Shown here: piece by piece, positions 4,937-63,623 of the stretch
How the letters are laid out: each line of letters opens with the position of its first letter
Numbering within the stretch: position 1 is the first letter of the stretch
Assembly: GCA_944332815.1 (NCBI GenBank)
Contig: CALVKQ010000003.1
Span: forward strand, 2,082-66,081
Direction: 5' to 3'
Source of the DNA: an uncultured Clostridia bacterium
GTDB taxonomy: Bacteria; Bacillota; Clostridia; Christensenellales; CAG-917
DNA length: 64,000 bases
Position numbers and translations under genes: made by a program
The notes under the pieces: generated by a model
Told to the model about the DNA's origin: nothing
Databases searched by the model: none
The model's input: only the letters and a program-made list of their open reading frames with translations

Positions 4937-5779
4937 CTATTCTATTGTGTCGCCCTTTTCGGTATTGCACCTGTGACACAATGTTTGCAAATTATCATAG
5001 GTTGATTTTCCGCCCTTTGCTATCGGTATTATGTGGTCTATTTCAAGTGGTGCGTATCGATCCGAAACGCCACATTTACGACACCTGTAACCATCCCTTT
5101 TATATATTGCAAATCTCATCTTATTGGAAACTTTTCCTCTTTCCACACGGCAAATCGATTCCCAAATCTCGCGATCCAGATAAAAGTTTCCGCTTTTCCG
5201 ATTTAATCGTTTATTTATTGCAAATATATCTTCGGCTGTAAATATCTCACCTTTTTCTTCGCATACGCGCCCATTTATATTCGATCGGTAAAGAGTGACT
5301 CTCAGGCAAAATTGTGTGACAGGTACGCATGTTTTATCTTGCATTAACTTGCATTCGGTTTTTAACAGCCTTTCCGACTTTAATTTTCCGATCGGAGCCG
5401 CAAATTGTCCTGATGTATCAATAGAATTTACTTCGGCAAGATATTCTTTATATCGCGAACTATTATGATCCACCTTTTTTATTTGCTCGAAAAGTTTTGT
5501 TCTAATATATTGCAACTGATAGACCAAATAGTCTTGACAAGATATCATGTTAAAGAAGGTTTGATTATCGTAAGTATGGAATTGATCGAAACATACATAC
5601 GGATAAAAATCGTATCGGCGATTTATTTCGTCAAGCTTTTTTATGCTGATGCTGTTTTCAAGTACAAAATCATGATAATTCCTTTGTTCACGTCGCTTGA
5701 AAAGGCAGAATAGGATGATCGCAGCGGTCAGACCTATTACAGTAGATATGGCTATCGCTAGACCTGAAATCAAAGGCAT
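4937..5779 (-). CDS. HNH endonuclease with N-terminal transmembrane anchor
   Basis: C-terminal RFAIYKRDGYRCRKCG...EIDHIIPIAKGGKSTYDNLQTLCHRCNTEK; N-terminal hydrophobic LAIAISTVIGLTAAIILFCLF followed by KRR; visibly AT-richer than flanks. Confidence 0.88.
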   Translation of the reverse strand: MPLISGLAIAISTVIGLTAAIILFCLFKRREQRNYHDFVLENSISIKKLDEINRRYDFYPYVCFDQFHTYDNQTFFNMISCQDYLVYQLQYIRTKLFEQIKKVDHNSSRYKEYLAEVNSIDTSGQFAAPIGKLKSERLLKTECKLMQDKTCVPVTQFCLRVTLYRSNINGRVCEEKGEIFTAEDIFAINKRLNRKSGNFYLDREIWESICRVERGKVSNKMRFAIYKRDGYRCRKCGVSDRYAPLEIDHIIPIAKGGKSTYDNLQTLCHRCNTEKGDTIE

Positions 5780-5869
5780 TATTCCCTCACGTGGGCTTCA
5801 AAAGTTTTACTTAACAGTATCAATTTCGACAGGATTTGTCAAGAAGCACACACAGGGATCATACCACAT

Positions 5870-6633
5870 TCGACGGAATAGAGGTTTTTCTGCATTTGTT
5901 CTGCGTGCAGAGTCACGTGGGTAGAAAAAGTGCGCCGGCGTCGGGTAAGGATCCACCTGCCCAAAACAGAAAACCGCACTAAACAGTGCGGTTTTCTTGG
6001 TGGGAGGAGGTGGATTCGCAAGGAGAAAGGCGAGTGCTAACGCACCGCCTTCGACGGAATAGCGGTTTGCCGTTATCTGATCTGCGTGCGGAGTTCACGC
6101 AGAACGGCAAACGGCGTCAGCGACGGGTAAGGATCCACCTCTCCAAAACAGAAAACCGCACTTAACAGTGCGGTTTTCTTGGTGGGAGGAGGTGTGTGTT
6201 CGCCATAAGTGTAGGGCATTGAAAGGGTAGTGTTTTGGCGAGCGTTACATCACATCACGGACGATAGGAAAGGGCGAAAGCGTCACGCGGAGCGTGCCGC
6301 CGAACCTGCGCGCATAGAGGAAATTCCTGCAAAAGTTAAGCAACCTGCTGAGTACACATCACGCCCATTGTTTAATGTGGCGCGCATGGTTCGTCCACCG
6401 TCCCTCGCACAAACAAAAACCTCAACCGAATGGTTCGATTGAGGTTTTTGTTGGTGGGAGGAGGTGGATTCGCAAGGAGAAAGGCGAGTGCTAACGCACC
6501 GCCTTCGACGGAATAGCGGTTTGCCGTTATCTGATCTGCGTGCGGAGTTCACGCAGAACGGCAAACGGCGTCAGCGAAGGGTAAGGATCCACCTCTCCAA
6601 AACAGAAAACCGCACTTAACAGTGCGGTTTTCT
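5870..6633. repeat. Array of cassettes at the tRNA-Tyr 3' end: A (6452-6633), B (6180-6451), A' (5998-6179), truncated divergent A'' (~5870-5997)
   Basis: tRNA 3'-end copies TGGTGGGAGGAGGTG(GATTCG) at 5998, 6180 and 6452. A and A' are 182 bp and differ at one base (6124 C vs 6578 A). Confidence 0.92.
6604..6633 (-). terminator. Intrinsic terminator after tRNA-Tyr (copies at 6150-6179 and 5968-5997; different hairpin at ~6413-6451)
   Basis: AGAAAACCGCACT-TAAC-AGTGCGGTTTTCT perfect stem, followed by a U-rich tract on the minus strand. Confidence 0.8.
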
Positions 6634-6718
<85 letters not shown>

Positions 6719-6770
6719 ATGTGATACCCCATAAAATTTCGGAACGAAATTTGATGGGGACCCCCGTTAT

Positions 6771-57749: not shown

Positions 57750-57780
57750 CAAAAAGACAGGGGTGTTCCCTGTCCTTTTG
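57750..57780 (-). terminator. Terminator after rnpB
   Basis: AAAAAGACAGGG...CCCTGTCCTTTT hairpin. Confidence 0.7.
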
Positions 57781-57783
57781 CGC

Positions 57784-58096
57784 GAGCATAGTCTGTAAGC
57801 CGAGTTCTGTCTTGGACGACGATCTATCTTGACCGCATGTTGCCATACGGTTCCAGCGAACGGGAGCTTGCGGGCCGCATTTCACGCTCCTTTCTTGCAT
57901 CGGGTGGGGTTTACATCGCGCCTCGTCGCCGATTTGCGGGTGAGCTCTTACCTCGCCTTTCCATCCTTACCCTTTCGGGCGGTTTTTTTCTGTTGCACTA
58001 TCCTTGAAGTCGCCTTCACAGGCAGTTGACCTGCACCCTTGCCCTGTGATGCTCGGACTTTCCTCACGGTCACCCGTGCCGCCGCCCGGCTATCTC
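57784..58096 (-). ncRNA. rnpB: RNase P RNA (type A, compact)
   Basis: GAGGAAAGTCCGAGC, AGTGCAACAGAAA, TAAACCCC and ACAGAACTCGGCTTA conserved regions; P1 end pairing. Confidence 0.96.
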
Positions 58097-58234
58097 GCCC
58101 CATAATTTAAGCACACATACGCGTTTTAGGCAAGCATATGCGCGGAAAAGATGAACGCGCCCTGCGGCGCGTTCCGTTTTTTTAGCGTTTCAAGCGTAGA
58201 TTTTTGGGGTACAGGTCTTTGCCGCCGACACTTT

Positions 58235-62950: not shown

Positions 62951-63008
62951 GTTTTCTCTCCTTTCCAAATGCGCCCGGAATAAGTCCGAGCGCGTCATAC
63001 ATCATGTT

Positions 63009-63587
63009 CGCTGGCAGCAGCCTGAGTAAACCTTGCGCCATCAGGTTCGGTAGGCTTTCCCCCTGCGGAAACTCGTCGTCGCCGTACGAGAGGTTTCCCA
63101 TTACTCCGCAAGATGCAGGGTTTCCCACTGCACAACCGAATCGCCACTTAGAGCACACTATAATCCCCAAGCTGCCTCGTGAGAACAGTCTAGAAGATTT
63201 CCTTGACAATTTTCGTCCGCCCTTATCTTTTTTTGCAGACAACATTTCGAGAGGCGATCGCCCGTCGGCGTCGGCCGGACGCGTCGGGGCGTGGATCCTC
63301 TGTCCCTGAAGCTCCACTCAAAGCAGGCTACACTGCACACAGCGCTTGCGCACCGCATAGCAGGTTTAACCCCGGTCAGTAGGCGCAACGCCCACCGAGT
63401 CGGGTCTCCGCGACAGTCGGGTCGAGTTTCGCATGCCGTTGCGAAGCGCCCGAAAGTCTTAACTCCCAGCAACAGCCCCGGTTTGGGCAACCAAAGCCAT
63501 CACCAGAAACTTCATCGATATGCCCTTTAGCGATATTTTACCCCCGCCTTCGGGTCGGCGAAAACTGACTAGAATACTGCGCCAGCG
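63009..63587 (-). ncRNA. ole: OLE RNA (ornate, large, extremophilic)
   Basis: TTCTAGTCAG...GGGCATATCGATGAAGTT.CTGGTG...GCTGGGAGTTAAG...GGAGACC...GTAGCCTGC.TTGAGT...TCTAGACTG...GGGGATTA.AGTG..CT.AGTGG.A blocks; ends pair (CGCTGGCGCAG/CTGCTGCCAGCG); oapA-tlyA-nadK-argR-recN context. Confidence 0.92.
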
Positions 63588-63594
63588 GTCTATT

Positions 63595-63623
63595 ATTATA
63601 TTCTCTACACTTTTGTTTGTCAA
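63595..63623 (-). promoter_or_regulatory. Perfect sigmaA promoter for OLE RNA
   Basis: TTGACA-17 nt-TATAAT, ending 7 nt before the predicted OLE 5' end. Confidence 0.88.

Follow-up and report, generated by a model that had tools for sequence, protein, structure and literature searches.

In the 64,000-nt stretch of DNA from an uncultured Clostridia bacterium analysed here (hereafter the window), the last gene of a six-tRNA cluster on the minus strand, tRNA-Tyr(GTA), is followed on its 3' side by a row of gene-less units that repeat the end of the tRNA and can be folded into hairpins. What these units are, on which strand and in which molecule their fold is used, and how copies of the tRNA end came to stand in them are the questions considered below. 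Counted from tRNA-Tyr, four units were found in the order A2, C, A1 and truncated B (Table 1). Unit A, for which the original prediction had proposed a folded structure under selection, is one copy of a gene-less cassette family situated behind many tRNA genes.

Table 1. Positions in the window of the tRNA-Tyr gene, the units behind it and the parts of unit A1
Feature	Position	Strand	Remarks
tRNA-Tyr(GTA)	6634..6718	-	Intact target gene
Unit A2	6452..6633	-	Adjoins the tRNA; one base different from A1
Unit C	6180..6451	-	Second cassette class with other core and right end, 272 bp
Unit A1	5998..6179	-	Class-A cassette, 182 bp; the structure originally predicted spans 5998-6149
Unit B	about 5863..5997	-	Diverged class-A cassette without right hairpin and tRNA-end copy
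A1 direct copy	5998..6018	-	tRNA 3' end from T-loop position 56/57 to CCA
A1 right hairpin	6026..6052	+	Lengthened version of the family's short GC-GNA-GC hairpin
A1 conserved core	6053..6119	+	GAC/GTC foot, GGAATA bulge at 6056-6061, apical C-GGA-G loop at 6089-6093
A1 inverted copy	6131..6145	+	tRNA 3' end (T-stem and part of acceptor)
A1 terminator-like hairpin	6150..6179		13 bp, at the head of the unit

Beyond unit B lie an HNH gene and a XerS-like recombinase gene, the latter 1.6 kb off. The product of the former (4937-5779, minus strand) has 280 aa and carries its HNH domain at the C-terminus; the gene occupies a low-GC stretch adjoining the truncated unit, probably an accessory insertion. 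The window also carries sporulation genes, a class A RNase P RNA (57779-58097, minus strand) and an OLE RNA (62995-63601, minus strand). A separate repeat with GGGGACCCC arms was seen inside some cassette hairpins and between tRNA genes (L227; the end of G000:C16; window 6726-6767).

The four-part layout of the units, read on the tRNA strand, comprises a terminator-like hairpin, which stands ahead of every unit, an inverted copy of the tRNA 3' end, a core followed by a small hairpin and TCCTTAC, and a direct copy of the tRNA 3' end. The family core consists of TGACGC, a variable hairpin and then CGCTATTCCGTC on the same strand. The hairpin at the head of A1 was not picked up by the consensus terminator scanner.

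Scans of the sequence collections revealed the family in at least 118 and at least 117 stretches, and the records bearing it belong mostly to Clostridia or Christensenellaceae. Among the matches listed, we kept the first unit when it lay at most 330 nt from a CCA-ending tRNA and dropped duplicates, which left 145 units; they stand behind 30 tRNA types, with a median distance of 159 nt to the start of the copy. The cassettes have a median size of about 160 bp. Besides tRNA genes, tmRNA also carries a class-A cassette. Most motif matches (124 of 185) are located within 800 nt of a tRNA on the same strand, many of the others being at contig ends or behind islands, and the full right-end motif sits at tRNA/tmRNA ends, island ends or contig ends. 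In this genome, the class-A motif was revealed at 13 of the 30 operon-terminal tRNA/tmRNA genes with enough flank, and a cognate inverted copy was present at 10 of these 13 genes versus 1 of the 17 others. The right-end pattern was found in all 14 genus relatives, 28 of 108 family genomes and 20 of 301 genomes of the order, and in none of 399 phylum genomes outside the family; the viral contigs, phages and plasmids searched contained no member of the cassette family. One core type recurs at different tRNAs within one genome. Class C was also observed near tRNA-Ser, Ala, Val and Lys. At another locus (L230:300-1700), tmRNA is followed by a class-A cassette, a low-GC gene for 313 aa and a second, partial right end.

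The direct copies are specific for the tRNA that they follow: 74 of 98 units match their own tRNA, versus 2 of 8444 non-cognate comparisons, and among the matches listed the copy is near-perfect and CCA-ended in 104 of 145 units. In unit A it is 21 nt long. An inverted copy of the cognate tRNA end is significant in 55 of the 145 units, and none is clear in the remaining 90. In 46 of the 55 significant copies the offset from the mirror position, taken about the apex of the terminator, is no more than 3 nt, and the inverted copy of A1 stands at the mirror position too; the best inverted match falls within this distance in 80 of the 145 units listed versus 217 of 1450 non-cognate controls. Terminator, inverted copy and real tRNA end thus make up one long palindrome.

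Both copies break at T-loop position 56/57 and carry an altered T-loop. Of the 55 inverted copies, 29 match tRNA position 57, 9 match position 56 and 10 match position 55, while 25-27 match positions 54-52; the direct copy matches position 55 in no unit, a base that the search pattern itself fixes. The 5' strand of the T-stem is replaced in the cassette, so that no T-arm can form. The acceptor end is poorly paired, since the inverted copy matches positions 72, 71 and 70 in only 22, 25 and 33 of the 55 units. Of the 91 copies that are perfect over 20 nt, the match ends at CCA in 37, 1-3 nt beyond it in 19 and at least 5 nt beyond it in 35; duplication this far past CCA points to an event at the level of DNA. 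In some relatives (L007, L006 and L282), a short extra insert splits the direct tRNA-Tyr copy just after GAATC. Elsewhere, at G000:C5 23352-23450, the 3' end of tRNA-Ile together with seven further bases recurs behind the gene, about 70 nt away, as a perfect inverted copy with no class-A core.

All stems named in the original prediction were found in the sequence. In unit A, 6027-6032 and 6034-6037 pair with 6042-6051, and the covarying 10-bp and 7-bp stems of the core are formed by 6065-6074 with 6103-6112 and by 6082-6088 with 6096-6102, respectively. The diverged copy B was said to keep its pairing, and it does so in both stems (5885-5893/5921-5929 and 5901-5907/5914-5920), with three G-T pairs on the plus strand. 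The helix proposed to close the unit (6007-6017 with 6131-6141, containing a single T-G pair, 6016/6132) is real as a pairing but represents only one of two possible partnerships: the inverted copy pairs equally well with the tRNA-end copy across the terminator.

We analyzed covariation in 18 homologues of the central hairpin, namely 17 of 29 cores of similar length that share the bulged hairpin of unit A, plus B, with A1 taken in place of A2. Watson-Crick pairs occupy 312 of 378 cells, versus a mean of 233 and a maximum of 251 when columns were shuffled, and more than one pair type occurs at 14 of 21 pairs. The covariation is therefore real, and the compensatory changes in the central hairpin support the claim that the structure is under selection. 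The region folds more stably than all 200 shuffles on both strands, with z of -5.25 (plus) and -6.62 (minus) for RNA and -6.26 (plus) and -6.94 (minus) for DNA. With z between -5 and -7 on either strand, the energy of folding does not favour the plus strand, and the strand asymmetry in folding expected from the original prediction did not appear.

The G-T pairs cited for the plus strand are four in number, one in the closing helix and three in copy B; such a bias holds in copy B but does not extend to the family, and we rejected it as evidence for the plus strand. Two further pairs of unit A itself, 6052/6026 and 6119/6052, are G-T on the tRNA strand. In the 18 homologues there are 20 G-T pairs on the tRNA strand (15 of them at one terminal pair) versus 6 on the plus strand. 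A strand-blind count of stems in 96 de-duplicated cargos gave 30 on the tRNA strand versus 20 on the other; the same count gave 21 versus 7 toward the tRNA strand for the terminators taken as a control (an RNA pattern) and 17 versus 23 for tRNA genes as a positive control, this last result arising because short chance stems were included. The three G-T positions of B are Watson-Crick in the B-type copies of relatives (L004, L282) and thus look like decay in a truncated copy.

A signature of the strand was revealed instead by the loops. The loop of the right hairpin had been left free in the search pattern, and among 301 distinct contexts 198 contained triloops. GNA stands on the anti-tRNA strand in 119 of these 198 versus 1 on the tRNA strand, counts that overstate independence because the copies are related; with distinct sequences counted once the figures are 16 versus 1 of 50, and in metagenome loci alone 46 versus 0 of 79. 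According to a review (PMC13037366, section 2.3), of all 64 triloops GNA alone gives the DNA mini-hairpin, its stability falling in the order A > G > C > T, and an RNA tetraloop counterpart is much less stable. The abundance of the loops in the family (GAA 53, GGA 31, GCA 18, GTA 14) follows the same measured order (PMC13037366). Another 52 of the 198 triloops are ANA, which in that source is not a mini-hairpin (PMC13037366). Among 49 tetraloops, GNNA occurs in 25 on the anti-tRNA strand versus 0 on the tRNA strand, 9 of the 25 not being GNRA. The apical loop of the central hairpin is C-GGA-G or C-GAA-G on the plus strand in 12 of 18 homologues, and tandem GA/GA mismatches number 27 on the anti-tRNA strand versus 1 (12 and 4 in shuffles).

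The bias has its exceptions: the right hairpin of unit A1 carries its mini-hairpin loop on the tRNA strand, against the family, which makes unit A a mixed case, and class C has no strand signature in its loops (4 versus 4 in 18 copies). Conservation of the loops could also reflect ancestry or the sequence preference of a protein. The TNC-G pattern might have come from UNCG tetraloops of the tRNA strand, a reading that we rejected because the stems centre on triloops and none of the 49 right-hairpin tetraloops is UNCG. Replication strand was likewise discarded as the cause of polarity: cassettes occur on both replichore orientations (8 leading, 6 lagging), so the polarity follows the tRNA. The proposal of a single-stranded DNA fold on the strand opposite to the tRNA is thus supported by DNA-type GNA loops and not by the G-T pairs originally adduced for it, while an antisense RNA, offered alongside it, fits worse than DNA because triloops dominate.

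The order of units at tRNA-Tyr varies: it is A-C-A-B here, C-A in G002 and G009 and C alone in G012 and G013, A is first in G004 and G010, and the tRNA-Tyr locus of G001 and G006 contains no core motif. In one case (L243) a cassette lies inside a tRNA operon; after the displaced tRNA-Leu end come a short spacer and then the next tRNA gene. No excised circle and no empty/filled pair within one species was found in the assembled contigs, a material uninformative for excision joints. Serine- and tyrosine-integrase islands enter the same tRNAs via other junctions and push the cassettes away. Large serine recombinase islands were observed at the CCA end of tRNA genes (L238, L239, L240, L241; G000:C6 9299-10714), their recombinase gene ending beside a tRNA-like attachment sequence, and this genome has 8 recombinase-domain matches. 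An 11-kb tyrosine-integrase element at tRNA-Lys(CTT) is followed by a class-A-like cassette (G000:C16 603-11147). Neither kind of element qualified as the source of the cassettes: the large serine recombinases upstream of some of them form their junction at the CCA end and push the cassette aside (L238), and the element at tRNA-Lys has its own long attachment repeat starting at the anticodon arm.

We searched for a gene whose product might move the cassettes. The long or tRNA-less cassettes inspected contained no enzyme gene, an integrase included. The single RAYT-like Y1 transposase of this genome (L031:1300-2340; G000:C1 about 120,100-121,200) scores 79.5 bits versus a cut-off of 80 and is flanked on both sides by long inverted repeats of its own; these repeats differ from the cassettes, and the protein gained no support as the enzyme. 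Y1 proteins in general occur in only 8 of 14 genus relatives, which counts against them; in the family they were found in 34 of 108 genomes and overlap with the cassettes only loosely. For an Ssn nuclease, no SRM motif was detected in 106 cassettes and no GIY-YIG gene of Ssn size in 15 genomes, whose only 94-aa frame is at the edge of a contig. The search detected a reverse transcriptase in 2 of 15 genus genomes, with no hit in the present genome. The recombinase near the array gives its best score to XerS and scores far below the integron cut-offs, and of 61 family genomes 56 have a XerS-like gene, most of the 56 being free of cassettes; neither enzyme gained support as a candidate.

Taking these data together, we consider it moderately probable that unit A is a non-autonomous element inserted at the T-loop via folded single-stranded DNA of the anti-tRNA strand by a predicted enzyme acting in trans, its inverted copy arising by fold-back at the terminator. 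As we infer the course of events, an ssDNA enzyme that recognises hairpins (HUH/Y1 or Ssn-like) would cut at the T-loop, and fold-back synthesis on the terminator hairpin would make the inverted copy; such synthesis would explain the mirror position and would allow the element to adapt to any tRNA. Repair would then leave the tRNA whole and shift its old 3' end downstream, the altered T-loop in both copies would block re-targeting, and arrays would grow, shrink and swap cores through recombination between repeats.

Other explanations deserve comparison with this insertion of folded ssDNA. It is somewhat unlikely, in our estimate, that the units serve as RNA of the tRNA strand, in which read-through would yield a species of about 150 nt resembling RttR, with an acceptor/T-stem helix and a CCA end, that would act as a decoy or a small RNA after processing by tRNA enzymes. 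The minus strand, ending in ACCA, does have an RNA z of -6.62, most direct copies retain CCA, there is a slight tilt of G-T pairs to the tRNA strand, and RttR and RrA/B/F of E. coli are transcribed and processed (PMC8144298, PMC4986893). However, the units have a terminator-like hairpin ahead of them, most lack a clear inverted copy, the T-arm is precluded, and the loops of the tRNA strand are pyrimidine triloops with no UNCG tetraloops. The original suggestion of a tRNA mimic can point to RttR as a precedent, but a mostly unpaired acceptor end weakens it here, and the Rfam RtT family did not match unit A at the gathering score or at any E up to 5, matches below the gathering score being counted as chance. 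The retro-insertion of such a CCA-ended RNA, whose anti-tRNA-strand cDNA would fold and reinsert in the manner of a bacterial SINE, would explain the DNA-type antisense loops whatever the replichore as well as the 37 perfect copies that end exactly at CCA; with 35 of the 91 reaching into the terminator, reverse transcriptase so rare in the genus, and an opposite polarity in the E. coli elements described below, it is highly improbable.

We regard it as unlikely that the units are passive products of fold-back or slippage at tRNA terminators, spread by gene conversion at the T-loop with no dedicated enzyme, the mini-hairpins persisting because they promote such events. Mirror placement of the inverted copy, terminators duplicated in roughly one copy in three, the decay or truncation of copies such as B, and the negative search for an enzyme (in cassettes, and for Ssn and reverse transcriptase) all agree with such an origin. 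Against it stand the compensatory changes, which indicate selection, and a fixed core with its conserved bulge and a fixed T-loop break, seen among the matches listed at 30 tRNA types and in seven or more families, a combination hard to obtain without specific recognition. In the original proposal, a tyrosine recombinase would integrate the units at the T-loop as attC-like or attP-like cassettes; this reading has in its favour the nearby XerS-like gene and the facts that tRNA 3' ends are standard integrase targets and that integron attC sites are folded single strands. Tyrosine integrases need an identical 7-bp overlap, whereas the sequence shared at the junction here amounts to C-RARTC alone, with a changed T-loop in both copies; moreover, one arm is tRNA-specific and the other variably spaced, integrase islands beside the cassettes use other junctions and merely displace them, no integrase gene lies in the cassettes inspected, and the XerS-like gene is family-wide. 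We therefore judge it very unlikely.

To place the family among known systems, we compared it with the tRNA-linked repeats (TLRs) of E. coli (tyrT 178-bp repeats/RttR; Egan and Landy 1978, Rudd 1999, as cited in PMC8144298). These repeats lie behind tRNA or rRNA genes in one to five copies and end in the last 18-19 bp of the upstream gene; some are released as discrete RNA in tRNA processing. TLRs have been studied as RNAs, and neither an origin nor a function for them has gained acceptance since 1978 (PMC8144298). Unit A falls under the same definition, being located downstream of a tRNA, with a 21-nt copy of its end and tandem copies in the one-to-five range. In E. coli K-12 we examined 13 units at tyr, lys, arg and pro loci (tyrV, lysT-lysQ, argV-argQ, proK and lysV; L180, L383, L384, L385, L387), while glyY and alaX contained no repeat. 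The 13 units have a hairpin, an inverted copy in most of them, a shared core, a direct copy and GNA mini-hairpins, the latter numbering 38 on the tRNA strand versus 4 on the other. Thus, the Clostridial cassettes and the TLRs have in common the four-part plan and GNA mini-hairpins, but differ in several respects: (i) GNA loops are on the anti-tRNA strand in the cassettes and on the sense strand in TLRs; (ii) the direct copy starts at position 56/57 (20-21 nt) in Clostridia and at position 58 (18-19 nt) in TLRs; (iii) the inverted copy is mirror-placed in the cassettes and not in TLRs; and (iv) the Clostridial family covers 30 tRNA types in one order of Clostridia, with no sequence-family match to TLRs. 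A literature search that did not cover the original TLR papers returned no account of the Clostridial family or of GNA loops in TLRs; the inverted copy of the E. coli repeats may already be in print.

Several other systems resemble the cassettes in part. REP/REPIN are non-autonomous repeats mobilised by RAYT (HUH Y1) transposases (bioRxiv 2020.06.25.170514, 2024.07.17.603846), and the cassettes are like them in being non-autonomous hairpins with variable loops and local amplification that depend on an enzyme in trans, which for the cassettes is predicted. Unlike REP/REPIN, they are restricted to tRNA ends and have tRNA-specific arms; no cognate RAYT gene flanks them, and they are not spread over many intergenic regions. 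Ssn nucleases act on NTS/SRM hairpin repeats (PMC11893778), and here the likeness, on the cassette side only proposed, is that of a strand-specific ssDNA hairpin read by sequence and structure and cut in a variable flank; the cassettes contain no SRM consensus, no single-domain GIY-YIG gene of about 94 aa was found, and the main text of the Ssn paper does not mention tRNA (PMC11893778). In its probable way of working, unit A comes closest to an ssDNA hairpin of REP or SRM type, yet appears to belong to neither group. Arrays at one site and a duplicated tRNA end are likewise features of integron attC cassettes and tRNA-integrating islands. The cassettes differ from both in the absence of cargo genes and of an integrase in cis, in the altered T-loop and in the inverted copy, and neither an integron integrase nor attI was found in cis.

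Tentatively, the Clostridial cassettes and the E. coli TLRs may be parts of one widespread class of mobile ssDNA-hairpin elements that would retarget to any tRNA by copying its 3' end twice, inverted and direct, with a putative enzyme cutting at the T-loop; if so, they would represent self-programming site-specific insertion without an RNA guide. The existence of a Clostridial family with the TLR plan and of strand-specific DNA mini-hairpins in both groups moves the question of TLRs to DNA, where it becomes testable in E. coli itself as well as with short oligonucleotides. Should an enzyme insert hairpin DNA at any T-loop, tRNA hotspots would have a new route for gaining sequence, and a possible insertion tool would be at hand. 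The cassette family thereby offers a testable origin for the unexplained TLRs.
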